64,000 nucleotides of DNA, taken from the NCBI GenBank assembly GCA_030681595.1, contig JAUXSB010000033.1, positions 12,223-76,222 on the forward strand. The letters are read 5' to 3'. A model generated the notes under the pieces. That model made no database searches, was not told the DNA's origin, and saw only the letters and a list, made by a program, of their open reading frames with translations. The position numbers and the translations under genes are program-made. This document shows, piece by piece, positions 39,001 through 60,000 of this stretch. The DNA is from Candidatus Omnitrophota bacterium. GTDB taxonomy: Bacteria > Omnitrophota > Gorgyraeia > Ghiorseimicrobiales > Ghiorseimicrobiaceae. The stretch's first letter is position 1. Each line of letters opens with the position of its first letter.

Positions 39001-42000
39001 ATGTCTAACCACTTAATTAAGACGCTCAGATCGCCCAATTCGTGAATTTCACGAAGCGCATTATAAGCTTCTCGATATTGCTTAGCATAATCTCTAGATT
39101 TTCCTTTGCTTAAGTCATTGGCGGTATCTAAGAATGCTTTTTCTAAATTATCTTCTTTCCCCCTAAATTTATCTATTGTCTTGGCTAAATCAAAGGTTTT
39201 TTCTTTCTTTATCACCGCGCCCATAAAACCATAAAAGAGGCGCACCGCCGGCCAATATTTCTCAAGCACCCTTAACTCTTTAACATTACCTAAGTCCAAT
39301 ACATAGAGGATATTGCTTATGCGCTGATTTGTAAGCGTGCCTATTCCTCTCGCCGCGTAATAAATAAAATCTAAGATAGCGGCGGCCTTAAAATAACGGT
39401 TTACATTTATTAGGTATTCATTATCAATAATAAGCGTTTCAGAGTTTTCGCCGCTTAAATAAACGATAAACCCTATCCTGTTTAAATATTCTATCAGTTG
39501 GCTTTCGCTGAATTTGGATATATTTTTTTCGTCAGTTATAGCCTTAAGCATATCTTTGATAAACTGCCGGCTCAACTGGGCAAGCCTTCGGGAAGCAGTA
39601 AAATCAAAACTCTTAATTCGCCCGCCTGATGCCTTATAAATTGTAAAAAATAGCTCAAGCACCTTTAACGTCTCTTTATCCGTTAGATTTACAAAGACGT
39701 CCATAGCATGATCCATCTGAACAGTCTCCATAAATTCCTTAAAATCACTATCATTTCTTATAGCTATATCTAACACGGTGTATTTTGCGTCAATTCTGGT
39801 TCCGGAAACATCAGAAGAAAATCTTTTTTTGCGGTGTTGGGTAATAGAAAATTTCCTTAAGTATTCCAAATCGAGCATCTTAGTCATAAATTCTGCCGCA
39901 GAGTTATTAAAGAAACTGCCGTCTCCATAAGAGAGGATATCCGCGGAATTAACTATTATCAAAAACTTAAGTAGCATTTGTCTTTCATCTTCGCTATCGA
40001 ATTTATCCAAGGCCTTTAAAACCGTATTCTTTGGTCGTTCGCCGCCTCCGATTCCGCCAAACTCCGGATGATACTTAATAATAAATACCGCCCACTCAAT
40101 TACCTGTTTATCGGTAATACCAAACCTGCCTAAAACCGCCGGGATAATCTTTGCTCCTCTGTCCTCATGGGCTCCGCCTTTAATTATATCCCCGATATCA
40201 TGCAGGAAAGTAATGGCATTGATGATAAAGTAAATTTCGGATGTATTTTTCCCCTGCTTTTTCATAAACCGGACAATATATTCCAAGGCATCAGAGAGCA
40301 TGTCGAAATATTTCTTATCTATATTAAGCATGCCCTGCCTTAAATTTTTAAATTCCGCATAGTCTCTCCTGAAAAATATCTCCGTAAATTTATTCAATTT
40401 AATAGAATGTTCTAATATCGTAACTTTTGGTTCTTTTGTTTTTACCCTCTCCAGGAGCTTTAGGTAGGATAGCGCCTTAAACAGAATTCCTTCCTTAGCC
40501 TTTGCGTTTTTATATAGTTTTTCTAATTCCTCACCTGAATTTAAAGTTTCAAGTGCTTTCTTAAGTAAAGATATGGCATGCGGGTCAGAATCAAAATCAG
40601 GTAGTCGCTCTTCTTGCGCAGATTTATCTTTTAGCCTGAATTTATTAGTTATCTCGTGAATACCGCCATCGCCTGAATCAATTACGCGATGGACACGGCT
40701 TTCACAGACAAGCGTAATGATAAGATTTATATCTTCTTCCTCAATATCAAGTTTTTCTAAAAGCGGCAATAAAAGCTGTTTAGCGCTCTCTGCATCATCT
40801 CCCAAGAGAATCCTCGAGTAATCTCTCAACAGGCCGCTTAAGAAAAGGATTTTCTTAATCATTTCATCTTTGCCATGCTGGCCTATATCACTAAACCGGT
40901 ATTGAAGCCTTCTTAGTAAGTCACGATTTAGATTATCCTCTCCGGGAAGTTTGCGCTGGTTAAAATACTCATACCAGCTGTCTTCATCTACAAGGCTCCC
41001 ATAATGCTCAAGGAAGCTCAACTGATTAGCGGATTCATTAACCAAATCCCAGCGGCTATTTTGCGCCCACCAAAAATCTGAATGGTCGGTGATGAAATCC
41101 AAAGCGCTGATATTTGTGTTCTTTATAACCCAGTCCCATAATTCTCTGACATTGCCTCTCTTCCAAAATATCTTAAAGTCGTTTATTTCTGTATCGGGAA
41201 TTAATTCGATTCTCGCCAAGAGCGCGTTCAACAAGCTTAAACGAATCTTAGAATGTTCGCTGTCCTTCGGCTCATGCCTCATATATTGCGTGAATGCCTG
41301 AATTTTTTCGTCATATCTGGCTGCCCTTAAAGCATGAAAATAAACAGTCGCGGCCTTGGCGTATTCGCCTCTCTTGAAAAATTCATCCGCCTCGCCAAGC
41401 AAGAATTTCATCAATGCCTCTAAATCAACTGTTTCTGTTTTATCGCCGCTCGCCGCCTTTATATAACGCACCTCATCTACGATATTGCCTTTTACCTTAC
41501 TCTTAGGCTTGCGCGGGTCTTTCTCTATTTTAAATTCCTTATGGATAGCCGGATACTGCCCTTTATTCTGCCTCAAAATCACATCCAAGAAAATCTTAAA
41601 GTTCTCGTTATTTGTAAGCGGGCTGGCGGATTCTCGGGTTGAGACTGCGGCAATAATCGCAGCGCCTATGCCCGAGCCATCATGAGTCAAAGTTAACTTA
41701 ATCCTGCCTGCCTTTTCAAAACCAAATATTTCTACGAATGCTTCTTGCATCCGCGCGGCAAAACCGGGGTATTTTTCAAAAAGTGAACCATCTACGGCAA
41801 CCGTATGCCTCTTGGATAAACGCGGGTCGATTTTGGTAAGCGCGCCTGCTAACGCGGCAGTTGCTATACGCGCCGCACGGATAGAAATAATCTTACAGAT
41901 TTCTTGTATCGCCTTTCTTTCTTCAAAAGTTATGCCTTTAATCTTAAGTTTACTTAGCACTGTATGCGCGCCCCAGAGATTAGAGGAGCCATCACTTTCT

Positions 42001-45000
42001 ATCTTTGCCATATCTTCTGTGCTTAAGCTGTGAATCTTTCTAAGCCGAGACGGAATCTTGCCGCCAAACAACAGGCCATTAGAAACAAAATCTAGTAAAA
42101 TTAAACGGGCAAGTTCGCCTAAATATTTACCGGAAACCATCTTCTCTTCTAAATGCGAACCGCGGTTTTCTGACTGTTTATCTAACATCTCATCATATTT
42201 AGTCTTGGACAGACTCTTATTAAAATTCCCTGACTCCATATTGATAATCATAGATTTACCGGAATATGGACCGATTTTTTTCTTAATCTTGGATGCCTTC
42301 ATCCTTGCGGACATATTTGTGCCTGTGCCTAGGATTAATGCTATATCGCAACGCAAATCAAGATAAGCCTTTGCTACCTGTGTACCCGTAGTATCATTAT
42401 CCAAAGAAACAATCTTAACATTATTAACGTTCTGACGTTTTAATGCCGCCTCAAGTAAAACAACCACGTCTTTGCCTTTGACGCCTTTTGCCGTAAAGCC
42501 TTTACTCCAACTCATAAGAACACCTTGGTCAATAGCTGTCTGATGAACGGCAAAACTAAAGGTATAACCTAAGGAATATTCGCCCGAATAACCATGCTTC
42601 CTTAAGAAGCTCTTTAGGAACTTAGCTAAGGCGTCAAATAAAATATTTCCTGTCTGGGTAATATCTCTCTTCTTGAGCCTGTATTTCTCAACTATAATTT
42701 CCGGGCCGGAAGAATCGCCTTTTAACTCCACCATCAGAACGCGGAAGTTCGTTGCGCCTAAATCAAGCGCCAAAAATAGGCCTTTTTCTTTACCTGTGGG
42801 ATTATCGACATATGTTGGAAGCATCTTTAATGAGCTTTCTTCGCCTCGCAGGCCTTTTTCCATCTCCTTATGGAACGCCCGCATAATATCCCTTATGCCT
42901 TTAGGCGTTAAACCAAAAACGCTTCTTAAATTATTTAACTCGACTTCTAATACATTGTTCTTTAATCCAAGCGGGCTGGCGGATTTTCCCCGGCCTGTTT
43001 TCAGATGCTGCCTTGCTTTATTGAGTAAAAACTCATCTGTTCGTTCTAATAAATTGTACTCATCGGTATCAAATGCATCCGCGGCATCTATGGCGACCAC
43101 AGGCCCATAAGAAGAAACCAGCATATTAGGCTCTGCTGTAATTCCATACTTTTCCAGCTGTTGCATAATAAAAGGGGCTTGCAGATTATATCCAGTTAAA
43201 TACTTACCGCCTACAGCCTGCATTGCGTAATTAAGCCTGCCGGATTCATCTATAAAAAGACCATAAAATTCCGGATAAATGCCGATCATGCTAAGTAATT
43301 GGGCCGCATAAATTTCTCTTTCCGCATATTCATAGCTCTGACGTTGCGAAATAACCTTTACGACTACGGGAAAATTCTTTTGTTCAATAAAGCTTAGGTA
43401 TACGCCATCGTTACGCATCCCGCCGCAAGAGTCATCGGATTCAAGCCGAACCGATAAAGTATCAGCCAAAGAAATAGGCCTGTCCATTAAATCGCTAATT
43501 CCGATAATATCTGCCTGCAGATCTTCCGTACGCCATTGATGCATAACCCAAAACTTCTTGGGGTCTTCTGCTCCGGTTACTTCTAAATGCCGAGTATTAA
43601 AAATATACCTACCTTGACCCGGCCATTTTGTATTAATTTCGATACCGCTTTTTTCTACGCCAAATTCAACCAGGCGCTGGATAATTCCGGAGGAGCTGAC
43701 GCGGACAGCAAGCATGTTTAAAAAATCTTCTTTACGTTGTGCGGAAGCTTCATCTTTGAATCTAAGCGGCGAGGAATTGTTTTGGAGGGAATCGGATACG
43801 GCGGAAGCGAAAAGTGTATTATTAGGATAGGCTTGCCTAAGATATTCTAGGTAAGTTTTACTTTCTCTGCCAAAGTTATTATGCCTGAGTGAGGCGGCGA
43901 AAATCTTGCTCAAAATCGCCCCTGCCTGGCCGTCTCCTAAAATATCTTCTATTTCAGGGTCTGTCAGAGAGCGTAGGAATCTTTGCAATGCCTTTTCATC
44001 CCCTGTCTTTTCTATCCTTTCATAAAGCGCGCCCAAATAACGCTCAAAATATCCGTTGCCTAGCTTACGCCAGCCGGAAATTGTCAGGGCAATAACAACG
44101 CCTTTTAACCTGTTGTTTTTGTCTAAAAATCTCTCTCCTCTTTCATGATTTAAGAGCTCATAAGCTAATTTCTCGGCATTCACGAGGCGGCGCGCTTCAT
44201 ATGCCGACTTCTTCTCGTACTTTCTTACTGACTCTATAATATCTTCAATGCCTAAGGAGCCGTTTTTCAGCCAATGATACGGCCTGAAGGTTTCGCTGGA
44301 GGCACTGATGATGTCGCAGACCATAAATATCTCAAGCAAATAGCGCACCTGCCTCTGGTCATGTTTTGACATCTCCTTGTAAATATGGTCATTGAATATA
44401 TCGCAAGGCTTATGATGATAAAGTATAATCAGCCGAACTTTATCCGAAATCATAATGCCTTTATCTATCAAGCGCGTTATTGAATAATGCGGATGCATTA
44501 TCCTTATATCTTCTAATTCTTCTTCAGCAAGGTCTTCGGGCGAATTAACCAGATAAATAAGTTCTTCTTCTGACTTGCCTATATCGTGCAGTATCGCCGC
44601 CCTTTCCAATATTTCCTTTGCTTCATCATTTAAGCCCCGCAGCTTTGCCGCAAGCCGCACAAGCCAATGCACATTCTTTACATGCATCCGGGTATGGAAA
44701 ATAGTAGAAGGATATAAATCAAGCAACTTTTCCCGTTCAGTCCCGCTCAGGGGGCTGGCGGATTCAGGCTTAGCATTAAATCTATAAATATAGCTATTAT
44801 CTGGAATATCCGGGTAATGCGGCTCATTAGATTGATGAACATCTCTAATTTTTAAGCTGCTATTCTTAAATGCGTCTGTCAATGCTTGTTCCATTTCTTC
44901 ATTTATCAGATTTATATCATCAAATCCTTCTGAACTTGGCGGCCTTATCCAGCTTGTCCAGATAAACCCGGCTTTGCTAGACTTAAGCCTTGCCAACCAA

Positions 45001-48000
45001 CTAAACGCCTCTTTATAGCCGCGGAACGATATTTGCGACATTCCTAAAGGATCTGTTATTCCAAATGCAATGATATGGGTGAATTTATTATTTCTTACTT
45101 CTTCTCTGGTTTCGGCTAAATTAATATCCCCCGCTATAACCCTAAGCGCACCACCCTCTAATCTCTTAATTATTCCGCGATATTGGCCGATATGCTCTTT
45201 CAACATCTTTGCCTCTATTGAATTAGGCACTAAAACAGTAACATCTACACCGTATAACAGCGCGATTAAGGCAAATGAGTAATAGTATCCGGCTGAATAA
45301 ACCTCCAATAAACTCTCGCCCTTTCTAAAATCTAATAAGCTATATGCGGCCTCTCCTAAGCGCAATCTCTCCTTATCCGTAAGCCTCTCTACGCCAAAAG
45401 CGCTTAAGAAACCGCTTTGGAAAGCGGAAAATGCCTCAATATGCTTATGCTCAACCCTGCCGTATTGCAGAAAAAGCCTCTTTAGTTCACTTTCGATAAT
45501 TTCTTTTCGTAATGCCGATAACCTATCTTCCTCTTGCTCTTTTTTCTGCAATGCCTCGATTTCTTTTAGTTTTTTATTCAGCAGTTTTACTGCTTTTGAA
45601 GCAGGACTCATATAGCGAATAGCTGTCCTGATTTTATCCAAGGCGTTTTCCCGTAAAGCTATTGTAGATATATCTATTTCTTTTAATATTGCGTTAGCTT
45701 CCTCTAAATCAGCCTTTTCGTTTTTCGCTTCTGCAAAAATCCTTAATTCTTGGTGCTCCCTATCTATCTCTCTAGCCAATTGTATTTTCTTATCCTGTAA
45801 TATCTTTTCCATCGGGGCTAATTGATAATACTCCCTTAAATTCTTATCCATCCCGTTTATGCGCCCAAGTAACGCGTTTACTTCTTCTATGGATAAATCT
45901 TTTTCTAATTCCGGAGTGATTTCATTAACCAGCGCAAGTAAGGCTATTTCTTTTTCCGCTAAATCTTTTGAGCGCGACGCTTCATCTCTTAATTTATTAA
46001 TTTCTTTATCATCTACGGTTATTGAAAGTATCTCGGATTCGATAAGCCCTAATGCCTCTTTATACTGGCCTTCATAATAAAATTCCCGCGCGATGTCTAA
46101 GGCATCTTTAGCCTGCCTTAACAGCGTATTTCTTAAATTATAGCCTTCCCTTATCGCATTAAGACGCTGCGAAATCTCCGAAGTTAGATTCTCAAGCCAA
46201 ATCAATTCATTTATTGCATTTGGATTATCCTCTGAAATGCTATTTTCGTATTCTTTAATTTTCGTAAGCGCAATACCTAAAGAAACCTGGCTACCTGTCC
46301 TGACAAGTTGCTCTAATGTCTTCATGAATTCTTGGCGCCTGCTATCTATAGGAGAAGAATTCATCCCGCCGATAATTTTATTTATAATATTTATGTCGGA
46401 TTCTAGCTCTTCATGATGAGTTTTGTACTTTAAAATTACCGCGCCGTTAAAGTTTCTCTGTAGCAGATTAGCAATTGTCAACTCCGCAACGCTTATCATC
46501 TCTGGATTGGAAAGGTTCCCCGGAAGATAAACTGCCTTAATAGGCACTGTTTTATCCAACCATTTCCAGAATTCTTCCATGTTATGCCCGCCTTCTAATA
46601 GATGCTCTACATTTAGACTAAAGCCTATATTTTCCCGGTTATGCAGAAAATCAAAAAGGTTAGATATGTCGAGCCAGCTGTGCACTGGTAGATTCTCGAT
46701 ATTGAGTTTGACCTTTTTTTCTTCCAATAGAGAAATAACGCTTTGTATCATGCCGAAAAATGCGTATCTGGCATATTCTGACTTTACTATTCCGGGCAGG
46801 TGAACGTTTACGGCCCTGGCGTTAATGCTGGCGCCAAATTCTATAGCTTTCAACCATAATGATATATTCTTGAAATCCTTAAAAATGTCGATATTGTTCG
46901 CGTGGACAAAAATAGTCCTATCGGAGGCTTCCTGATTAAACCAGCCCCTCCAAGATTCCAATATATCATCCGGAGTAAAACCATCAAAATGAATCACAAA
47001 TACCTTTAAAGCCTCGGGAGTAAATTTATAAGTATCTTCGATTTTTTCATGCGGCCTGTTTTTCCTTCCTAGCAAAATACCCCTGTAATCATCCGGCGTC
47101 TTTATTGGGCTTGAGGCATATTTTCTCTGCACGCGCATGATAAAACCGCCTGTGCTTATAAACGGAATCCTTAAATCGTGTATGACCTGCCTATACTGTT
47201 CTTGGGTTAATAATATCGGGGAGGAGGAAACCGGCAATTCAATAGTGAATTCCGCGCCCATGCCGAATTCGCTCTTGACGCTCATATCCCCGCCTAATAT
47301 ATTCAGGATTTTCTTAGCGCGGTAAAGGGTAAGCGATCCGGCAAATGTTTTGGTAGAAAACAACGGCATAAAAATATAAAGGATATCTTCGGCAGTTATG
47401 CCCGCGCCATTATCGCTTATGGAAATTTTGATTCTATCTCTCAACTTAGAAACGCGTATCTCTATCTTATTTGCCTTTGCCTCAAGGGCATTCTTAAACA
47501 TATGTAAGATAATCGTCCCCAAATCTTCGCTAACCATAACCTTTACCTCTTCCTTCAATTCCGAAACATAGCCAATCGACGCCCCAAAAGACTTTACAAT
47601 TTCTTGCAAGAAGCTATCAATCTTAACTTCCTCTATATTTTTCTTAATTGCAGACTCATCAATTTTTAACGAAGAAAGCACATTTGATACTATGAATGTT
47701 ATGTTTCCGTGATCCCGGAACATACCCGCTATTAACTCTTGGGAATATCGAATAAATTCGTTATTATTGGTTTCATTTACCTTCTCGGCCAAATTGTTTA
47801 ACGATTCAAGAATCTGTTTCTCAATAGCCTCAACATACTTTGCTACCGAAAATAAAGCATCGTCTAATTCCTTCTGGGTATCGCGGTTAATACCTTTATG
47901 CAGCTTGAAATACCTTTCTACTTTTCCCTCTAAATAAATAATCCTTTCCAACAATTCACCTACAATATCTTTAGTATTAAACTCTTCAGCTTTCTTCAGT

Positions 48001-51000
48001 ATGCGCCGCGCGAAACCACCCAGACTCGTGAAAGGATTACGCGTATGATGGTGCAAACCATCAAGAACGCGCCGGCCGGCAAGGATATACCGGGTTTTCT
48101 CCGCTTCTTTCCTTACTTCCTCATTGCCATCCTCAAGGGATATCCTCAAAAACCATGACGCCTTCTTATTGCTGATAGCGCGTAAATCTATCGCCATCTG
48201 CCTCCTTATCTCTGGGTCTTGCGACCTTATTAATTCAAGTATTAAATCCCCGGCTAATTTATGAGCGGGATAATAATAAGCAAGTATGACTATAGCCGAA
48301 TGTTTTTCTAGCTGGTCTTTGGTCAGATACCTGTCTTTCTGCTTATGTAATAATTCGTTAATATTCTCCTCGCTACGCGCTTTTACTATCAACCTTACTA
48401 AATCATCAGGCCCTTCGGACGCCCATTTATAATCCTCCTCTTTATTTCCCTTATGGCTAAAATATATAGTAAATTCAAAAAATCCTTCGTTCTCTTCCGG
48501 GATATCCGTCGGAATAATTTGCAGCTCGATTCTAAAGATATTACCCTTTTCATATATATGTTGCTTGTAACTTATGCCCGGTTTCCTGCCATACACCTTC
48601 CTATTGTCCTTGTAGATATTCACTATTTCTATATTTTCCCTGACAACTTTTCTACTTCTATGCGGCCGCACGCCTACCTCAATATAGCCATCACTAATAA
48701 ATCCAAGAAACTCCTCCATGCTTACGTCTCTGTCGAATTTTACCGTAGCATAAGCAAAGAAAGCATCGCCTACTATTACCTCATTCGTATCTTCCCTATC
48801 ATGAGCAATATCCCAGGCACCGACTATTTTCGGTAACTCGTTAGCATTATTGTTCTTAATCGGCGAAGAAACTTTGCCAACAGATATTTTCGCTGTAACT
48901 CCCTGCTGCTCTTCGACTGATATATTATTACCCCTTAGAGAGCGATTGTATCCCGCCAGCCACGCCCCGTTAGAAAGTGACGAATACCCACCACCAGCCA
49001 CGGAAGGTAAGATATCGCCTTTAAAAATTGTCTTTCTAACGGGGCACGGAAGGTAATACAATCTCTTTATGTAGCTTCTCTCTAAAGGGTTATTTAAATT
49101 TAACGGACTGGAGTTAGCCTTTGAATTTATCTTTATAGCAGCGGGCTTGCGACTTTCCCAATATATCTCGGATAAGCCCAAAAGCCACCAATACCTCTTC
49201 TTATAAACTCTATGGGAAGTAAACCCGGCTGAATGTAAAGCTTTACCAACAAAAGTGCGCTTGAGTAAATTAGCGTCTATAATAAGCCTTTGCTTAAGAG
49301 CGCGTTTTAAAAATTTCTTTGTCCTATCCTCTCTTATCATCATGCGAATCGCAATATCATCACGCAGCCTTGCGAATAATAATTTTAGGGCGCAAGCAAC
49401 CAAATTAAGCCCTTTAGGATAGTTCTCGGTAGTATCCGATGCCACTTCCAAGACAACCTCTTTATTTTTCAACATGAAATCCATTCCTATTTGCGCAAAG
49501 AGATTACTGTTTTCGTCAACGATGTCAATAACTACGCCCTTTCCTGATAATATGCCTTTCCCTAATAAAGAATAAACCTGCAGTTGGTACATCTTCTGGT
49601 CGTTAGCCTTAAGCCACTGGCGGTTTAGGCCTTCTGATATTTCTTTTATTTGCTTAGCAATAGGCGTGAGTTCTTTTCCGGCATTATCCTTTTCGTAAAC
49701 AGAAATTATGCTCTCTAACAACTGCCCCTGCTCGTCTTTGCTAAGCTTCATTATATCCGGCGCAAATATCTTAATTATGCCGGTCTCGGGGTCAATGTAC
49801 GCTGTATCACGCCCAATTCGTAAATCCTCCCTCTCGGCCTTATAAAATTCGGGAATAAGCGCTTCTTTCTCTAATTTATCGTTCGGTATCGGCGAACTCA
49901 TTTTTCTATCTTTTACCTGCCTGAATTGTTCCGGGGCCGTAAAACGCATCTTGGTGCTAAAGTAAGTGCCAAAATAACCAAAAGGTATTTCTATATTCAA
50001 CAAATTAATGACTTCATAAAACCTCTCTACTAAAGATGCCGCTTCCCTAATCTGATGCGTGCTTGAGACACCCTCAAAAATCAGCACTTTTTTACGGCTT
50101 ATAATAAAGCTGGAAATAATTTTGGCCAACTTCTTTGTTGAGACTACCCAATCCCCTTCAATATGTATTACTACATCCCTCTTTTCTGCCCTTAATCCTA
50201 ATCCGCCTCTCTCCATATAAGAGGACAACTCTGTTTTTCCAACACCCTGGTCACCATCTATGACTAAAATTACTTTCTTATCGCTTCTCTCGATAAAAGA
50301 ACGAATCTTCCTAATTCCTTTGTCTACCGGCATCATAACCCCGGATTTTCTCTTTGGCAGCCGGGAAATCTGTTCTCGTAAGAATATAGCGTTTCTTAAT
50401 CTATTAATATGCTCTTCTTTGTAAAGCGGCGAGTTGGAGGGGCCTTTGCCGATTTGAACAACCCATTCTTTTTCGCTCATAAGAAGAAGGGACGTAAAAG
50501 GTAGGACAGGCGTAGCATAAGTATCACCTTTGGAATACACGGTATCGATAATCACTCCTTTAACGCTGTCAGAACCAGGATTGCATATACATAAGAGTAT
50601 CTTTGAAATTTTCTTTTCTTTCGCTAACCAATTCACAACCTTAGCTGCGGAAATTTCACCAATATACACTTTTCCCTGTTTTTTCTCTCCCCTTGCGCCC
50701 AAGAAAGGTCCTTCGTATTTAAAACCTTTCTTGAATTCAGAAACGGTAATGAGTGTGGCTTTGACTTCTCGAACAAAAACAGCAGAACCTGGATTGTTCA
50801 AAAGAATATATTCCATCTGATCAATACTCTGTTGGGGCTCTAATTCAAAAATAAGAATTGGGAATTTGGTTAATAATATAGGGGAGGAGACGATGACTGA
50901 TGGCTGATGACCTGGTAACTTTTCTTCCACCGGCGAACTGCTTAATGCCTCTTCAGCGAAAGATATTTTTTCCCGGATTGAGGAAAGGCTTGCTTCTGTT

Positions 51001-54000
51001 TCTTTTCTTTGTTCGAATAGGCTGATCTTCAGGCCGGTTTGGGACCCAATCAAGTCGGATTCCTGTTGGCGAATGTCACTGAGTTTAGCTTCTAGTTTAG
51101 CTTCCTTGGCTTTGAGCCAAGCGATAATTTTTTTCCCTTCCCACACCGCCCTACCAAAATATAAATCAGCTAAAATTGCAATATAAAAGTCGGTTATCTG
51201 CTCATCAGTAAAACCTAATTTCTTTAAATCTCTAACTGCTTTAAGGCGGAGATCAAAGTTTGGATCAACTAATTTCTTAATTAATCTCGATACTCGAGTT
51301 ATTCTAAAAGAAATCCATATTCCCAACAGCTCTGCGATTGCGATACTAATATACGAATGCAAGGTTCTTACCAGCGCACCGGGAAAACCGGAAGACCCAT
51401 TCTTTCCTGCAAGTTTTGAGCTATGCGGATTAGAAGTTGAGTTATTATCGATATTATTCTTCTTATCGGGAGACTTGCTTGCCATTGAGGCAAAAACATT
51501 AAGGGTTAATAAAAACATCCAGACGAGATTAAATAGATTGCTGGTAGCAGCATAAGAATAATATATGGAATTTGCCGTCAAAGCGGATATATAAGTTAAT
51601 AAACCTATTTTTGGCCTTGACATAAAAAATCTTTCCGCGAAGAAAAATCCTTTTGGCATCATTTTTCTAAAAAACTCATAGCGGCCGTAGATAAATCCAG
51701 CTATGACTGCCGTGGCACTAAAAAGATGTATAGGCATCATATTGAATACCAATACAAACATTATCCCCGGTTTATAAAAATTTATTTCTTTATTAAATAA
51801 CTTGGCGGCAACCAAACTTGCTATTCCGCTTACGGCAAATGCTAATAGAGCATTAACAGCACTTTTGGTTAGAGCATAACCAATTAGAACATAGTCAAAA
51901 GGATAACCGCCAAGGCTATATGCAATAGTTAAAACCGCAAGTATCCCTAATACAATCTTCGTTTTTGTTGATATTTCTTGCGTCGTTATGTTATCATCTT
52001 GCGTCTTTTTCGCCATGGCGGGCCTGCCCGACTTATTTGTGGCGGGTGAGCTATTAGAGATAGTCTTATTAGCGATAATGAACTTCACAAAATTAGAAAG
52101 GATTTTTAATTGCGTATTCTCTGAAAGCTCAAAGAAATAAGGGTGGAGGATTAATGTTTCGCTAGAAATAAAACGGTTAAATGCGGCAGTATAGGGCAGA
52201 TTGGTTTTGAAATCTTTAATTAATTCGTATCCTTCGGTAAGGATTTTAACATAGAAGTAAAAATCAGGCGGCGCGCGGATTTCCTGACTTAATAAATGGG
52301 CTTGTTTCGTTAATATTTCCTGCCATTTAAGATAAAGCTTGCCTTCTGCCAAGGTTACTTTAATATCTTTGCCTAAGCTTATCTTCACAAATGCTATGAA
52401 GCCGCTTCCCTCATTAGAAATTATTCGTTTATGCTCCGCTTCGAGAACAGGCAAATTTGAAAACGGTAAACCAAGCGGGCTGGCGGATTGGCCCAATGCC
52501 TCAGCAGTAATAAAGTCCCGCCTTTGCCTCTTAGCAGCAGATGACAAGTCGTTTTTGTCCACCGGCGAGCTGGATGAAGATGGATACGAGGCATTATCTT
52601 TAGGTATTACTCTGGACGCCTCAATGGTTTTTAATATCCTATTCCCAACGATAATATTAACCAACAACACACCCCACGATACAAACACTATATCTCTTAT
52701 ACCCGTCGGCATCGCGATGTTTTCGGTCATAAAAAATAGTATAGCCCCCAAAGAAGCCGCAGACGCAATCAGTGCTGCCGTGCCCAATTTCAGCATCACA
52801 TCAACGATGGCTTCTAATTTCCGCACCCTATCACCTAACGCCGCCGGAGAGTTAGATTTTAATTCCTCTTCGCTTTGATTATCTTTTGTATATTTTACGG
52901 TGCTGTTTGCTTTTATCGCTTTTATTGTCTCTAGTGTATGCTTTACAAACGAAACCATGGCGGCAATAAACACTACCGACTCCGGTATGCCAAGCGAAAG
53001 AGGGCTGGCGGATTGGCCCAGGAAATCAAATGTCTTCCTGCCAACCAATTCCCAGATAAACTGTGACTTGGATTCCTTAAAACCTTTATAATCAACAACG
53101 TTATCAACTATAAGCATAATGCTCCTGTAAAGGGGGATACCGTATTTACCGGATGGCGCCTCATTCATGACATGCCTAAACAGACCCCCATAATCTTCAT
53201 AATCAAGATTAAACTCGGAGATATTTCCTTTTGCAATCACCGGAATAATAATATAACCTTCCTTTGAATCCGCCTGCTTAGCCAAAGCGGATAATCTTAC
53301 GATAAGCTCCTCAGAGTTCATTGTTACATCTAACTCAAAATAAGGAGTAATTACTTTGGGTAAGAGATTACGGGTTGCTTGGGCAAACTCTTTAGGATGG
53401 CTGACCGCAACAAGAGAGCTTTTACAATAAGGATTACGGTGCTCATCTAGTATTTGAATAACTTCGCCTGCCTGCTGCCTAATCTTTTCTTCTTGCTCTG
53501 GAGTAATAGGCGAAGAATTTCCTTGAATAGAATCGAACGGATTATAATATCCCTTGCCTTCTTTTTCCCACTGCCTAATATCATTCGTGATATTTTGAAT
53601 AATCGGAGAAGATAAACTAAAATCTTTTTCGCCTACCTTTTTATTAATGCCATAATATTTTATATTGATCCCTCCCTTATTATCTACAGTTACGATTTTT
53701 CTAAGCAAAGAGGTGCTTGGTTTTTCAAAATTTTGTTCAGGAATCCCATTTTGATCTTGTAAGTATTTCTGAATATCTTCTACTTTCCATCTTCTTAAAG
53801 GAGCTGTATCTTTCGGTGTGGGAGTCATTGGATCGTCAGAATAAACAATCATAATTATCCAATCTTTCCCTCTAATATCCTTAAATGAACTTTCCATAAA
53901 ATCTTTCTCTTTTTGCTTATCTTCATCTTCATGCCATCCATAAATATGAACCACTTTCGTTTTGCCTGTTTTACTATTGTAAGCTATTGTTGCTAAACAA

Positions 54001-57000
54001 ATTTCTAGAAAAACTAGTAGTTCCATATTATTATCTTCAGGCCCTAATTCTCCACAGTCCCATTCTTTTATGGTCTTCCATTCCTTGCCTTTTGCCTCTT
54101 GCGAATTCACCGGAGAAGATGGATTTTCACTGATTGGGCCGAAAATAGTGTCGTTTCTGCTTAACTCTTCTATTTTCAAATAGTTAGGATTAAATTCACC
54201 ACTATTCTTCACCGCGGGCGAGTCTGCGATAGAATTAAACAAAGAATCATAAAGCTGAACTAAGATATGCTTAATCTCATCTACCTGCGCATCGCTTAAG
54301 ACAAAATAAGGATAAGTTTTTAAATGTTGACGTTTAGCTTCTATAAAACCCAAGAGGGAATCTAATGTTATTTGCCCCCTGCTAATAATCTTTCTTGCGC
54401 CCTCTGTCAGATAGAACTTTGCAAGCCTGCGTACCCAGCCCTGCAAAGCTAAATTAGTTACCCCGTCTGATTCTGAATAGCGAAGATTGTTTTTAATCGC
54501 GTTTAATCTATCCTCCAGCGAAAACTTATCATTGAAGAATTTATTAATGATTCTGCGTTCTTTTTTTGACAGCTCTTCTGACCAGCTCACCCAAGTTTCA
54601 TAGATTCTATCTAAATCGGATACGGCACAAAGCATATCCGCATCATGCAATATTCGCGCTTCGGAGAATTTAAGATGTTCTTCTCTGGGCTGGCCATTTT
54701 CTGCTTTTTCATGGCCTTTTACTATCTGCTTAAGTTCTGGCCTGACGGCCTTATTAAATCTTTCCTCCTTAGTTAAGATTGCACTCATCCATATGGCTGA
54801 ATTCTCTACATGGTTATCCCTGTGCACAATGCAAGCTAAATCGTGCATAAGGATAGATATAATCAGCTTTTCCATATCTACCCCAGCCGCTAAATCCGGC
54901 TCCTCTTTGATAATTTCTAAAGCGACTCTTAAAACCTCTAAAGCATGAGGCAAACCATGTTTAGCAACAATGCCTCTATCAAGATAAAAACGCTTAAACA
55001 AATTAAACGGCATCCAGCGATGAGCTACTTCTATATAATTCCATATATAACCAACAAACTGCGCTGTCTTATCACTATCGCTAAAGATAGTTTCTAGAGA
55101 AGGTTGAATTTGTTGTAAGAATTCTTCTATTCTTAAATAGGCGTTAGATAATTCTCTATCGGAAAGCTGGCTTAAAGCTACTACTTGCGGCACATCGCGC
55201 ACCAAATTAGAGAAAAGATACTCTTCATTTTTCTTATTTAATGCTTCATCGTCGGTTAGCAGGAATTTATCCCTAAAGTCGCGAATTTCATGATCCGTCA
55301 GATCTTTATTTTTCAGCGAATCAATGGCTTTCTGGAATTCTTTTTCCGCCAGCGAGCTGGAGCGGACACGGACAAAGGAAACAACTTGACCTGACAATAA
55401 AGATATGATATCTTCGGTAAGAACTACTTGATAAGGAGGCGCTGAATGAACAATAGAATCATGGAGCGGTTGGAAATACTTGAAGAGAAAATTGAAAATC
55501 TCAAATGGCTGGTCATCACGCCTATCTCTCTTGGTAAAGCCGATATTTCTAACGCTGTCGGCATCATTAGAAAAAGTTCGGGTCTCTTGAATAAGTCTCT
55601 TACCAAAGGAATTGTCTTTGAAAACAAAATCCGCAGGCAATGGACGGCTGATTTCCTTAAAAGAAGGGGTTAACCAATGAGATACCTCATTGATACCAAT
55701 ATAATTATTGACCACCTGCGGGGAGACAAATCCGTTACTGCTTTTCTTGAAGAGATAGAAAAGCGGCAAGCTAAAGCGAGTATCTCTGTAATTACCGAAT
55801 ACGAACTCCTTATTTATCCCTCGCTTAATAAACAGCAGGAAAAAGAAATAATTTCCTTCGTAAGAATCTTTGCTCTGCTTAACATCACCCCATCCATTGT
55901 AAAAACCGCCGCCCGCCTTAAGAGAAAGTATAGCGGCATTGGCATCGTTGATTCCCTCATCGCCGCTACCGCCTACAAAAACAAGTCTATCCTTATCACC
56001 CGCAATATCAAACATTTTAAAGATATTAAGGAAATCCAAATAAAGTCTATTTAAGAAATCCCTGATTCCTTCCGCCGGCGAGCTGGAGCGCATTAACGCC
56101 CATGATAAAGAATCTATTATGGCGTTATAATTAGGCGAATAAGACGTGATACGTTTATCATTCTTCGTATCATAGAGAACATAGCGCAGCTCACCGTCTT
56201 CCAAAGAATGCCTTATAATCACCTCTACGCTTTCAATCCTATATTCAGCACCGTCAAGAGCTCTTAATATGCTGCCGGCCTTATAGGGGATTTGCGCTAA
56301 AATAATCTCTTCTATTGATTCCCTTAATTGAGTAATCTCTTCGATAGCTGATTTTTTCATCGCCCCAAGTTCAAGGCTGCAGCCAACGCACGCACCGCTA
56401 TCTTTTAGCTTCTGCTCAAAATCTTTAACTTTTTTCTGGATATCAGCTATCTGTTCTAACGCGACCTCGATAGACTGCGCCTTATCACCGCTTATTTCGG
56501 GTAATTTTTTAAGAATAGGGCTGGAAAAACCCTTGGCCTGCATTAACTGACGGGGTACAGTTTTAAAATCTCCATCCAGAAAAGACTCAAGCAACATCGC
56601 AGTTTCTTTGTCAGATAGGATTATTTTCCCCCAACGTACAGCATGTAAAAATTTAATAATATCGTAGCTACCGGCAGAAATTAGTTCTCTGCCAAAGCGC
56701 CTATCAATAAAATTTGCCACTTTAGAAAAATCAATAATATTATCTTTTAATTTCAACCGCATAATGCTATCTTGTAATATTTCCTCTGTAAAATTCTTCT
56801 CTTTACCGTAGTTTTCCAAAGAATCAATAAATGATGAAAAATTGCCTTCCGTAAACTTATATGCATCCTCCAAAATCCACTCCAGAGAAGATATTAAATG
56901 GTATGTTCTTGGCCTATTCCAAGCACTATGATCGTCTATTGTAAAAATAAGTATTGAAATATTTTTAACAACACTAAAGAACCGGTCTATCCTTCTGACA

Positions 57001-60000
57001 AAAAGGTTAAATTCTTTGGCATCTTCATCTGAAAACATCGTCGTTGCCCCTGATTTAATCTTCGCAAAAGGAGTCCTTAAGTAAAAAGGCATGGAAAGAT
57101 CTTCCGTGATTAACTTAGCCTCGCCTTTCCTCGCATAAGTAATTTCATAAGTTTGATATATACTGGCATACTCACGCTCTACATCTATAACCTCCAAATC
57201 TAATACCTCATAGCCTTGTTCTTTTAAACGAGCTCTCTCCTGACTTAAATAGGTGCATTCAACCGTCGTGGTCAGGATGCCCTGACCGGTTAATTCTTTA
57301 TACTTTTGGATATCCAATCCAGCATACCTTAATTCTAAATTGATGGCATATCTGAGGGTTTCAAGGGTGTCGCTTATATCTACTATATCTAAAATAACCT
57401 CTCTTAACCTCTTGTCGCTGTAACCTTTGTCCCTCGTGGATTTCATTAAGGCCGGTATCAAACGCGCTGTCTCTAAAACCGGAACAAACGAACTTTCATC
57501 TGTAAGGAACTTAATAATGGCCGGCCTGCCTTCTTCCAGTGTTCGGTAGGCGTTTATACCCTCTTTGTCTAATATAGATGCCAACGCCTCAAGGAATTCC
57601 AAATATAAATTATATTTACCTACATCTCCTTTCGCCTTTTCTATAGCTATTGGAACACCCCACTTTAACGTAGAACAGAAAGGAACTAATTTCTCTTTTA
57701 ATCTCAAGCCGAGGTTTAAAGCCGGCACAAGATAAAGATCCTCACTCCCCGTCTGTTGTAATAATGCGGGAACAGCGACTTTTCTTGCGTATTCAAGATC
57801 ATCATCCGGGTTCAATTTCTTTAACAACTGCTCAATTAATTGTCCACTTATTTCACTCACCGGCGAGCTGGGGAGAGATTCTGGCCCTTCTTTGCTTTGA
57901 TTATTTTTAGCGTCTTTCGCCGCACCTTTTGCTTTTATCGCTTTTATTGTCTCTAAAGTATGTTTTATAAGCGAAACTATGGCGGCACTAAGCACGGCTA
58001 ATTCCGGCATACTAAGCGAAAGAGGGCTGGCGGATTGGCCCGATGCCTCAATCGTCTTATTTATCAAAGTATTTCCTTCTTGGATATCCTCCGGTAAGTC
58101 GGAGGTAGTATCGTCAAAAAGAGAACCGCCACCCTTTTCAACATCATACAGTCCTTCATATTCGAAATAATCCTCTTCGCTTAACGGCGTAAAATAGGAC
58201 TTGCGAGAAACAATATCTCCCCACTTTACTCCATTGAGATAAGGCCCGTACGCATCAGACCAATAGGTTTCATGTTTGGGGTTTCTATTAATTCTATCCA
58301 CTAATACTTGAGCCGGGCCTTCAATTAAACCTCTCTCTACGGGAGACTGATGTGGATCCCCCCACTCATCTCCGGAAAAACAATATATTCTTTTTTCAAT
58401 ATCAATGGCTAATTCATTATCTACCATTATAATATCTTTAACGTCGGTCGCCCTCACAGTTCCGGGGAAAATTTTACTTATTTCGTGAACAACCGGAATC
58501 CCGGCCAATATTCTTCTTTGCTCTTTAAGCCTGGCGGTAATAAAAGCCCGCCTTTGCCTCTTAGCAGCAGATGACAAGTAGTTTTTATTCCCCGGCGAGC
58601 TGGAGCGTATCCACTCCTTAGGCCTAAAACTAACTCTGACTATAGGGTTAATTAAAGCGTTGTTCCTTCTCTGCATATTCTTTATTCCAGACTCATAGGC
58701 TGCAGCCATAAGTTTTATACCTATGCCATGGTCGCTGGCTAACGATACTGCTCTATCAAAAGGCTTACCTTCAAAAAGGATGTCTAAAAATTCTTTACTT
58801 GGGGACTTATCATCTTCTAACTTTGGTGTTTCTTCTAGTATTGGCTCGCTATTTTCAAAAATAAGGTTGCTTTTAAACGTCCTCATATAGCGGTGGTTTT
58901 CCCCTCCTAATGCCTTTGGTTTTTTGTGCAGTTGAGGATCAAAAATCCTGGCTTCTCTCGTATATCTAATATCTAAAGCTTTATGAAGAACAACCCTGAC
59001 ATCCTCAATCTTTACAAGCCCTGAACGAAGCTTCATTTCTTGAGAAGGATGACGCATTGTAACGCCTTCATGTTTTAGGCTCAAATGAACAGTAGTTATC
59101 AAGTTACCTTTGCTAAAAAAGTCTATAACAACATCTGTATTCACATCATAGAGGTCTTTTACGGGACGATATTGATTAATTTCTTTATCAGCAATACGAT
59201 GCACTATGCCATTGCTATCCCTTTTGAAAGGAAAGGCTTCATATAAATCAAGAGGTGTTTTCCAAACAGTATTTACATCCGCATAATCAATGATAATGTC
59301 TGAATACCTTAACAACCAAGGAATAATATCAAAAAAGTGGTAGCCGGAATGAGCCATTTTGCCGCCCCAACGAGAATAGAGCGCATTGTATATCCCATAA
59401 CTGCCGGGCCACTGGTCTTTGCTGAATATAGGGTATCCATCATTTACCTGATATACAATACTCTCTACTGGAATCTTCTTGTTGTTTAAACGCGCAGAGG
59501 AAATGTGGCCTGCCATTCTTTTAAATATATCTCCGTAGCGCTTCTGCGTAGCAAGCATAAAAAGTACGCCCTTAGGACACTTACCACGCAGCTCTTTATA
59601 ATCTTTATATATTTTTCGGGCAGCAGCTATATCTGTGTTGCATTTCTTTGGAAGAGTCAGCGGCTTATCAACTAATACGTGAAAATTATTTTTTAGCGCC
59701 CATTTCACATATGTTTTATGCGTATCCGCGCCTGTAGAAACCACAATCGCCTTTTTAGCATAGGACTGTAACCTTTCTTTCGCCTCATCTTTCCACCGCG
59801 TTGATATAGGTATCTCTATTTGCTCCCGGTTCACACCAATACTTCTATAAAATTCCTCCAGTTCTGCCTCGTGTTTTTTATACCAACTTTCATTTTCACG
59901 CTTTCTGCCTTGCTTTTTATTATAATATTTAAGGTCAACAACTCCCACTAACCTACTTTTTCCTTCTCGCTGATATTCCCTTATGGTCTGTAAATGCGCT

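Follow-up and report, generated by a model that had tools for sequence, protein, structure and literature searches.

The giant genes of Omnitrophota carry a short junction peptide, x-[A/S]-S-P-[L/I/V/M/A], which lies at the borders between protein modules and constitutes a peptide-level code for module boundaries common to the giant open reading frames (ORFs) of many Omnitrophota species. In this report we describe the junction peptide in a stretch of 64,000 nucleotides, termed the window, from a Candidatus Omnitrophota bacterium (assembly GCA_030681595.1, contig JAUXSB010000033.1, positions 12,223 to 76,222 of the forward strand) and in related loci, show that the motif is kept by selection on amino acids and not on nucleotides, and discuss how it might be read, the exchange of cassettes at the junctions and a hairpin element found in translated spacers. 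The peptide adds a new feature to an already known gene class. The window is occupied by a single gene:

3..63998 (-), interior of one giant stop-free ORF (frame 2 of the reverse complement without stop), with Pfam and NCBIfam content

This minus-strand ORF runs for 21,332 codons without a stop and is open at both window ends, and all frames other than frame 2 of the reverse complement contain hundreds to thousands of stops each (six-frame stop count). As a single ORF of at least 10,000 codons with many distinct Pfam families, none of them dominating, it falls among the giant multi-enzyme ORFs of Omnitrophota. According to Pfam and NCBIfam, it strings together unrelated enzymes and regulators, all of them modules of cytoplasmic type. 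The metabolic modules comprise a methyltransferase, a GFO_IDH_MocA oxidoreductase, a hexokinase, a GH77 4-alpha-glucanotransferase and a PHP phosphatase; further modules are SIR2_2, TPR, an M48-like peptidase, the C-terminal half of a histidine kinase (HATPase_c), four HD domains including a SpoT-like one, sigma/LuxR-type helix-turn-helix (HTH) segments and a ComEA-like helix-hairpin-helix (HhH) segment. A self-BLAST of the ORF revealed only seven short paralogous segments. The ORF is therefore not internally repetitive, the motif recurs in unrelated contexts, and an origin of the repeated k-mers as by-products of duplicated modules was ruled out.

The motif is encoded in frame on the minus strand and far exceeds expectation: [AS]SP occurs at 58 sites in the window ORF (about 6 expected) and S[AS]SP at 25 (0.41 expected). 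Its positions are interdependent: A or S precedes 47 of the 60 xSP[LIVM] sites, and Pro occupies the x in 47 of the 78 [AS]Sx[LIVM] sites. The junctions are spaced by a median of 262 aa (mean 360 aa), about one protein length, and are distributed as follows:

61644..61655 (-), PSSP, aa 783
61389..61400 (-), SSSP, aa 868
60075..60086 (-), VSSP, aa 1306; between methyltransferase and GFO_IDH_MocA; in the 32-nt repeat SSPATxKSGRPA
58593..58604 (-), SSSP, aa 1800; copy of GCGAGCTGGAGCG
58023..58034 (-), SASP, aa 1990; copy of the 13-mer GGGCTGGCGGATT
57861..57872 (-), PSSP, aa 2044
56517..56528 (-), FSSP, aa 2492
56076..56087 (-), SSSP, aa 2639; copy of GCGAGCTGGAGCG
54111..54122 (-), PSSP, aa 3294
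53604..53615 (-), LSSP, aa 3463
53508..53519 (-), NSSP, aa 3495
53001..53012 (-), SASP, aa 3664; copy of the 13-mer
52563..52574 (-), SSSP, aa 3810
52476..52487 (-), SASP, aa 3839; copy of the 13-mer
52044..52055 (-), NSSP, aa 3983; in the 32-nt repeat SSPATxKSGRPA
50931..50942 (-), SSSP, aa 4354
50880..50891 (-), VSSP, aa 4371
49890..49901 (-), MSSP, aa 4701
49104..49115 (-), NSSP, aa 4963; opens the spacer with nested hairpins
48861..48872 (-), VSSP, aa 5044; closes the nested-hairpin spacer
47217..47228 (-), SSSP, aa 5592; exact end of the histidine-kinase profiles
47106..47117 (-), ASSP, aa 5629
46350..46361 (-), NSSP, aa 5881
44751..44762 (-), SASP, aa 6414; copy of the 13-mer
43767..43778 (-), NSSP, aa 6742
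42972..42983 (-), SASP, aa 7007; N-terminal border of the hexokinase module; copy of the 13-mer
41619..41630 (-), SASP, aa 7458; C-terminal border of the hexokinase module; copy of the 13-mer
38637..38648 (-), SASP, aa 8452
34557..34568 (-), SASP, aa 9812
34518..34529 (-), junction-like SSSP, aa 9825; inside a small GC-rich UUCG-type hairpin repeat
34290..34301 (-), QASP, aa 9901; opens a hairpin spacer
34119..34130 (-), GSSP, aa 9958; closes the hairpin spacer opened by QASP at aa 9901
33147..33158 (-), SASP, aa 10282
32442..32453 (-), AASP, aa 10517; shifted partial copy of the earlier note
28179..28190 (-), GSSP, aa 11938
28092..28103 (-), GSSP, aa 11967
26982..26993 (-), SSSP, aa 12337
26859..26870 (-), SASP, aa 12378
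25533..25544 (-), SASP, aa 12820; copy of CGGCGAGGCGG
24480..24491 (-), NSSP, aa 13171
23529..23540 (-), SASP, aa 13488; copy of CGGCGAGGCGG
23412..23423 (-), AASP, aa 13527; copy of CGGCGAGGCGG
23343..23354 (-), ASSP, aa 13550
22863..22874 (-), TASP, aa 13710; opens the M48-like module
21378..21389 (-), SASP, aa 14205
20889..20900 (-), VSSP, aa 14368
17949..17960 (-), SASP, aa 15348; 40 aa past the end of the GH77 4-alpha-glucanotransferase domain
16857..16868 (-), SASP, aa 15712; directly ahead of the ComEA-like HhH segment
15453..15464 (-), VSSP, aa 16180
9879..9890 (-), NSSP, aa 18038; start of a spacer that holds hairpin copies
9462..9473 (-), AASP, aa 18177
9381..9392 (-), AASP, aa 18204
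8322..8333 (-), TASP, aa 18557
7632..7643 (-), AASP, aa 18787; copy of CGGCGAGGCGG
4452..4463 (-), SASP, aa 19847; copy of CGGCGAGGCGG, overlooked by the earlier note
3831..3842 (-), GSSP, aa 20054; 18 aa ahead of a sigma-70 region-4-like segment
1518..1529 (-), SSSP, aa 20825
60..71 (-), GASP, aa 21311

The junctions had surfaced in an earlier note on this DNA as GC-rich strings that recur against an AT-rich background, a contrast that we recovered (68% GC in the 12-nt junctions, 40% in the gene). The six exact copies of GGGCTGGCGGATT were confirmed (0.00 expected), with starts at 41620, 42973, 44752, 52477, 53002 and 58024, two of which had been given off by one. CGGCGAGGCGG also recurs, at five places and not the four reported, since the copy at 4452 had been missed; its supposed shifted partial copy at 32443 is the junction AASP at aa 10517. 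GCGAGCTGGAGCG was found three times where the earlier note had placed it, and a linker of about 30 nt does occur twice, starting at 52021 and at 60052 rather than 60061. All k-mer copies lie on the plus strand and thus antisense, because the sole long ORF runs on the minus strand; they share one codon phase and read S-A-S-P or S-S-S-P on the coding strand. The longer linker (52021-52052 and 60052-60083, a 32-nt repeat) encodes SSPATxKSGRPA, a junction followed by an AT-hook-like KSGRP segment that is common to two otherwise unrelated places.

The motif lies at borders between protein modules, several of which are complete counterparts of free-standing proteins. One such module is the following:

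41631..42971 (-), hexokinase module, Pfam E 1e-70 and 1e-59, complete relative to free-standing hexokinases of 440-450 aa

Two SASP sites flank this module exactly. Its identity to free-standing hexokinases is about 50%, and Met1 and the C-termini of the free-standing enzymes align within a few residues of these junctions. An AlphaFold2 (AF2) model of the module with its flanks reached a mean predicted local distance difference test score (pLDDT) of 82, with values below 50 only at residues 18-23 and 472-495. Both segments begin at junctions, where they are coil; the first also ends there and the second continues through the downstream flank. The histidine-kinase profiles reach their last position at the SSSP site (aa 5592), VSSP (aa 1306) separates the methyltransferase from the GFO_IDH_MocA oxidoreductase, and in the Omnitrophota locus L003 positions 1-287 of a 290-position CofD profile fall between two junctions. 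None of the junctions lies inside the 18 domain envelopes that cover 15% of the protein (8.8 expected at random, P = 8e-5), and one falls on the first residue of an envelope. The concatenation of complete proteins in one ORF is a polyprotein trait, seen here in the hexokinase, the end of the histidine kinase and the L003 CofD, and a short conserved boundary peptide under amino-acid selection is another. The proposal of the earlier note that its strings mark in-frame cassette junctions therefore holds, as the motif brackets modules equal to complete free-standing proteins.

Two further observations concern the modules themselves. A metagenome fragment of 782 aa (P0026), a fusion of HAD hydrolase and hexokinase that spans its whole 2.4-kb contig, contains a hexokinase 52% identical to that of the window. 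Its two modules are not separated by [AS]SP, RSAPV follows the hexokinase, and the fragment probably comes from a further giant ORF whose junctions are of another style. In the window, three tandem 24-nt repeats at 23059-23146 encode GPPDFIRA three times within one of three paralogous modules of about 130 aa (aa 866-997, 3837-3958 and 13558-13705), two of which begin right after a junction; PPDF occurs four times in the ORF (0.06 expected).

The codons of the junctions demonstrate that amino acids are under selection. All six Ser codons encode the invariant Ser of the 58 sites (TCG 26, AGC 15, TCT 6, TCA 5, TCC 3, AGT 3), and all four Pro codons are used for the motif Pro. Nucleotide information is limited to five codons, mainly to codon positions 1 and 2, which rules out an attC-like or otherwise extended nucleotide site, and no conserved flank or inverted repeat was found within ±36 nt of the junctions. 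Junction 8-mers are restricted to one frame and the coding strand, whereas other over-represented GC-rich k-mers appear in all frames. The GC-richness of the junctions results from their Ser, Ala and Pro codons together with a gene-wide codon-pair bias for NNG before CCN: in the whole ORF, 36% of the codons before Pro end in G (22% overall) and only 13% in A (28% overall). TCG makes up 27% of the non-motif Ser-Pro pairs, and its excess at junctions is largely due to this preference. The G/C third positions emphasized by the earlier note are thus real in part (44 of the 58 invariant Ser codons, 28.6 expected), and much of the effect is the gene-wide preference for NNG before Pro. Translational-accuracy selection as a cause of the junction codon bias, tested on invariant versus variable hexokinase columns, gave 30 C-ending codons (24.4 expected) and was not retained as an explanation. 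Internal translation starts at the junctions were ruled out, since the codons after the Pro are mostly GTT, GTA, ATA and CTT, which are not start codons, and the upstream TCC-GCC-AGC-CCG is not Shine-Dalgarno-like.

Codon choice nonetheless varies along the gene. The Ser codon of xASP is AGC at eight of eight sites up to aa 9901, then TCN and, at the last site, AGT (permutation p = 0.0008), a segregation indicating that some junctions share DNA ancestry through local copying. This shared ancestry is history and not a nucleotide-level function. The switch from AGC to TCN occurs after the 5' 46% of the ORF, at window positions ~34300-34560 (aa ~9810-9900), in a region dense in GC-rich hairpin repeats, and two older arrays may have been joined to form the ORF.

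Relatives of the window were obtained by an exact search of GTDB genomes for a 20-mer of the hairpin element described below, which yielded 35 loci. The record titles name Candidatus Omnitrophota or Omnitrophica for most of these, and uncultured Planctomycetales, bacterium and, once, Patescibacteria for the rest. A word-index protein search with aa 3640-4400 gave no match, back-translated scans of GTDB genomes found no close relative, and in JGI metagenomes the sole match was a free-standing hexokinase of ordinary kind (L001). Of the 35 loci, 32 are free of stops over their full 8 kb or their whole contig. No marker gene is present in the window, which has homologous blocks in common with L026, L027, L031 and L035. 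The resulting comparison set comprises 33 giant-ORF pieces (78 kaa) from about 30 Omnitrophota metagenome-assembled genomes (MAGs). SSP is the most enriched real tripeptide of these pieces (133 versus 13.7 expected), [AS]SP is found 155 times (29 expected), and SSSP 58 times in 22 of the pieces (0.8 expected). Their junctions follow the consensus [S/A]-S-S-P-[V/L/I/A] and, as in the window, draw on all six Ser codons; in a control set of 198 unrelated proteins the motif occurs 46 times with 35 expected.

Between orthologous junctions the peptide is kept while the codons drift. One junction reads AGC AGC AGC CCG in L003 and TCC TCA TCA CCG in L012, and a second one TCA TCG CCG and TCC AGC CCC, respectively; among the 36 codons of 12 conserved junctions that lie within alignments, 15 differ and Ser codon families are switched three times, with a flank identity of 59%. 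The claim of the earlier note that protein-level selection is insufficient to explain the identity of the strings is not supported by this drift, and synonymous variation among linker copies in related genomes is precisely what that note had named as evidence to the contrary.

The same comparison reveals that the junctions are in-frame cassette junctions, at which modules are gained, lost or replaced between related genomes. L003 carries two modules (aa 1076-1516) in addition to those of L012, with SSSP on each side, and in the adjoining stretch the junctions are conserved but enclose unrelated modules. The identity of L003 and L018 is 89% over 990 aa and breaks off immediately behind an SSSP-V that both possess. 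Overall, 10 of the 54 internal termini of high-scoring segment pairs (HSPs) are at most 12 aa away from a junction in each of the two partners (0.15 at random, with a maximum of 2 in 2000 trials). As in an integron array, cassettes vary between relatives at the junction. The position of the breakpoints may reflect microhomology-mediated recombination at the junctions or selection for module-precise events.

A second recurrent feature of the window, a hairpin of ~80-110 nt with the apical core TTACCTTCCGTGGCTGGTGG, was traced from repeat families in the window and is truly a nucleotide-level element. At least six copies are present in the window, all in sense orientation, and 40 in the related loci. 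The copies discussed here are:

61535..61645 (-), hairpin element in a junction-bounded spacer, core TTACCTTCCGTGGCTGGTGG read YLPWLVV
48931..49094 (-), two nested hairpin elements, fold z = -7.7
34171..34281 (-), hairpin element read LPSVAGG, fold z = -4.2
9775..9876 (-), diverged hairpin copy, 36.8 bits
9520..9629 (-), diverged hairpin copy read FRGWW in the third frame, 50.5 bits
L008 1014-1126 (+), hairpin outside giant ORFs
L034 431-540 (-), hairpin outside giant ORFs
L021 1157-1266 (-), hairpin outside giant ORFs

All three frames are used for the core at different loci, 15, 10 and 8 times, giving LPSVAGG, YLPWLV or TFRGWW. Its stems are paired in 95% of cells (76% in shuffles, about 50% in slid controls), with 145 compensatory cells versus 41 in shuffles, and conserved U-G pairs point to the sense strand; of the 32 giant-ORF loci, 32 hold the element in sense orientation. 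Behind the hairpin comes a T-rich tail (T 0.48 versus 0.27 in the background). Rfam gave no match at gathering score in the whole window and none at E <= 1 around the element. In the nested pair, the outer copy's apical loop houses an inner copy of 80 nt, accompanied by a duplication of the 4 nt CGTG, and the insert of 80 + 4 = 84 nt keeps the reading frame. The same nesting is found in six copies at five other loci (L004, L027, L029 (twice), L035 and L036), with the identical nesting point TTCCGTG^...CGTGGCTGG, which suggests insertion targeted to the element's own loop. The element thus resembles transposable elements of the miniature inverted-repeat type (MITEs) and Rickettsia palindromic elements (RPEs) in being multi-copy, with terminal inverted repeats, target duplication and in-frame tolerance, but departs from them in its selected structure and orientation, which do not fit a purely selfish spread.

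The placement of the hairpin is equally distinctive. In giant ORFs, a junction is found no more than 70 aa away on one side or both for 92% of the copies (32% at random) and on both sides for 40% (2.9% at random; p ~1e-9). In the three loci without a giant ORF, the hairpin follows an ordinary gene, ~70 nt downstream of its stop codon and in sense orientation, and there it looks like an element of a 3'-untranslated region (3'-UTR), a repetitive extragenic palindrome (REP) or a terminator-like element. Since the hairpin lies 3' of ordinary genes elsewhere and is junction-bounded in giant ORFs, the hairpin spacers look like former intergenic regions that are now translated.

Further observations concern these repeats. 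The hairpin core (e.g., window 34213-34232) ends in the 8 nt GCTGGTGG, the same sequence as the Chi octamer of E. coli, and the 13-mer of the junctions contains GCTGGCGG on the opposite strand; either likeness may be coincidence. A different hairpin repeat, small and rich in GC, has the sequence CCAGCCCGAC-UUCG-GUCUGGCGGG, closes with a tetraloop of the UUCG type and is located at 34490-34529 and 61483-61522 and also near 34297, 32444 and 27169. It is read in different frames, as SSSPTSVWRV in one place and SSQPDFGLAG in another, and gives rise to the junction-like SSSP at aa 9825 as a by-product.

That a single short motif is preserved at hundreds of unrelated borders implies that something reads it. 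The reading that we favour, tentatively and as somewhat short of probable, is that the giant ORF encodes a polyprotein, in effect a translated operon, which would be cut at the junction peptide by a trans-acting protein, most likely a protease. A cut between the Pro and the hydrophobic residue of [S/A]-S-P-[hydrophobic] would free the individual enzymes and remove the short spacers with the structured hairpin as well; junk-peptide spacers, whose sequence depends on the frame, are bracketed by junctions on both sides in 40% of cases, which we counted as fitting excision. A shared junction would furthermore ease in-frame cassette exchange, and such exchange would give rise to the exact nucleotide copies and the local codon dialects. 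The complete scenario, in which genes were fused in frame via [S/A]-S-S-P-[V/L/I], with a dedicated protease cutting after the Pro, discarded hairpin spacers of intergenic origin and cassettes entering and leaving at the junctions, we consider possible but doubtful.

One candidate for the processing enzyme might be embedded in the chain itself:

22287..22862 (-), small M48-like zinc-metalloprotease module, Pfam PF01435, 21.6 bits versus a cut-off of 20.3

This module of ~195 aa, bounded by TASP and ATSP, carries the gluzincin signature with HEVFH (HExxH), EHEMD (downstream Glu) and YHPSSRERI (HPxxxRI), and a hydrophobic residue after the Pro (P1'/S1') suits M48-type metalloproteases. Homologs lie inside other long ORF fragments (P0121, P0125 and P0129), with SAP or STP at the border positions. 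A PDB sequence search with the module yielded no significant match, and an exhaustive HMMER search with aa 13171-14370 only weak matches to single modules.

Several points weigh against cleavage at the junctions, which we infer from the placement and conservation of the peptide. No protease is known to recognize S-S-P, which is not among the known M48 specificities. The PF01435 match is weak (E = 2e-4), the M48-like module was not found in the 33 sampled giant-ORF pieces, and a word-index protein search with it gave no match. The comparison loci were picked through the hairpin 20-mer and hence form a biased sample. About a third of the pieces (11 of 33) contain little or no motif, with no substitute junction motif found in the pieces that lack [AS]SP. 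Pieces such as L011, L014, L020, L030, L033 and others with few sites bear the hairpin without [AS]SP or a detectable substitute, and the junction code is thus not universal among giant genes. A residual codon bias is also present: the Ala of ASP is GCC or GCT at 24 of 25 sites (55% for Ala before Ser elsewhere in the ORF), and the first Ser of SASP is mostly TCC. Finally, Ser-Pro is a generic helix N-cap, and in the AF2 model of the hexokinase a helix begins at the Pro of the first junction, so that the motif could be an insulator that is not cut at all.

Such an uncut boundary linker is a serious, if rather unlikely, rival of cleavage. The giant protein would remain one scaffolded multi-enzyme chain, in which Ser-Ser-Pro halts the preceding fold and N-caps the next helix, and the uniformity of the linker would stem from cassette copying followed by purifying selection. 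The coil between helices at the hexokinase junctions agrees with this explanation, as do the shortness of the motif, the copying indicated by codon dialects and exact 13-mers and the lack of a known protease specificity that matches it. Nielsen & Lui (10.64898/2026.06.07.730766) likewise take the giant proteins as membrane-anchored multi-enzyme chains. However, ordinary multidomain proteins do not hold one linker across hundreds of unrelated borders in many species; many residues cap helices equally well, yet S and P persist while the codons drift; and an insulator is needed only once, whereas the junk-peptide spacers are bracketed on both sides.

The cleavage reading fares better still beside the suggestion of the earlier note that the GC-rich strings act as nucleic acid, either as integron-like recombination sites or as signals for RNA processing or pausing. 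Breakpoints that coincide exactly with the motif, six exact 13-mers in unrelated contexts, the segregation of AGC and TCN along the gene and the residual codon bias would all fit this idea, and yet it is quite improbable and already largely refuted by synonymous variation: every Ser and Pro codon is in use, as many as 5 of the 9 motif bases vary between orthologous sites that retain S-S-P, the k-mers are locked to one frame and one strand, a flank signal was not found, the TCG excess is largely the gene-wide codon-pair effect, and 12 nt are too short and too variable for a site-specific recombinase. Very unlikely, too, is a post-translational modification site (phosphorylation or O-glycosylation of the Ser at S-P) that regulates or protects the linkers, since, for all that the Ser is invariant, next to Pro and in exposed coil in the hexokinase model, and that Ser/Ala/Pro-rich sequons are known in bacterial O-glycosylation, the modules are of cytoplasmic type (hexokinase, SpoT-like HD, SAM/ATP-using methyltransferases) whereas general O-glycosylation is periplasmic, no link to a kinase or glycosyltransferase was found, and the presence of the motif at every border would be left without account.

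Whether Omnitrophota proteins of 20,000-147,000 residues persist as one chain or are cut is an open puzzle, and the junction motif provides the first concrete candidates for where they are cut or swapped. Being easily searched, the motif splits giant ORFs into protein-sized units, which makes structure prediction and annotation feasible module by module; proteomic searches for cleavage gain exact candidate sites, rendering the processing question directly testable; and the growth of giant genes becomes traceable as in-frame cassette exchange. The covarying hairpin represents an additional, apparently undescribed RNA or DNA element, which is phylum-specific and a handy marker of giant genes.

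Among known systems, viral polyproteins (picornavirus 3C sites, cut between Q and G, and potyvirus NIa sites) are similar in that several complete proteins share a single ORF, with a short conserved peptide at each border in an unstructured context and a protease-like module within the chain. The window differs from them in its cellular host and far larger scale, with at least 58 junctions in 21 kaa, in its motif S-S-P-hydrophobic and in a weak protease candidate and a cleavage that is putative. Integron arrays (attC, IntI) likewise contain unrelated cassettes, which one relative may possess and another lack or have exchanged, the breakpoints falling at a junction that recurs. In contrast, the cassettes of the window are fused in frame without stops, and no integrase or other recombinase is seen in the window, which lies wholly inside the ORF. 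Their junction is a peptide of 4-5 residues with degenerate codons, and the structured site of integrons, an attC of 57-141 nt with an imperfect inverted repeat, does not occur at the window junctions.

The hairpin is comparable to Rickettsia palindromic elements and other in-frame MITE- or REP-like repeats (PMC10969869), which are also multi-copy palindromes of ~80-110 nt, lie in frame within coding sequence and show nested insertion with a short duplication. It differs in its phylum-wide occurrence, an invariant 20-nt apical core and extensive compensatory changes in the stem, and it is always in sense, is read in three frames and is confined to junction-bounded spacers or to ~70 nt after ordinary genes. 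This conservation, covariation, orientation and placement point to a function in the transcript rather than to purely selfish DNA.

The closest system is the gene class itself, as described by West-Roberts et al. 2023 (bioRxiv 10.1101/2023.11.21.568195) and Nielsen & Lui 2026 (bioRxiv 10.64898/2026.06.07.730766). These multi-enzyme ORFs and the window have in common one ORF of tens of thousands of codons with many unrelated Pfam families, including methyltransferase, HATPase_c, HD, hexokinase, sugar enzymes and TPR, and the sequences related to the window are themselves Omnitrophota MAGs. Linker, junction, motif and polyprotein are not mentioned in the text of Nielsen & Lui 2026; that of West-Roberts et al. 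2023 describes no junction motif, with "motif" occurring once, in the title of a cited reference. The Velamenicoccus metaproteome paper (PMC12583861) does not discuss the giant protein, and we found no literature linking Omnitrophota to polyproteins or palindromic elements. According to West-Roberts et al. 2023, absent information on cleavage points blocked module-wise analysis. Compared to the giant-ORF papers, the junction peptide, the borders at which one module equals one protein, the cassette exchange at the junctions and the hairpin spacers are new.

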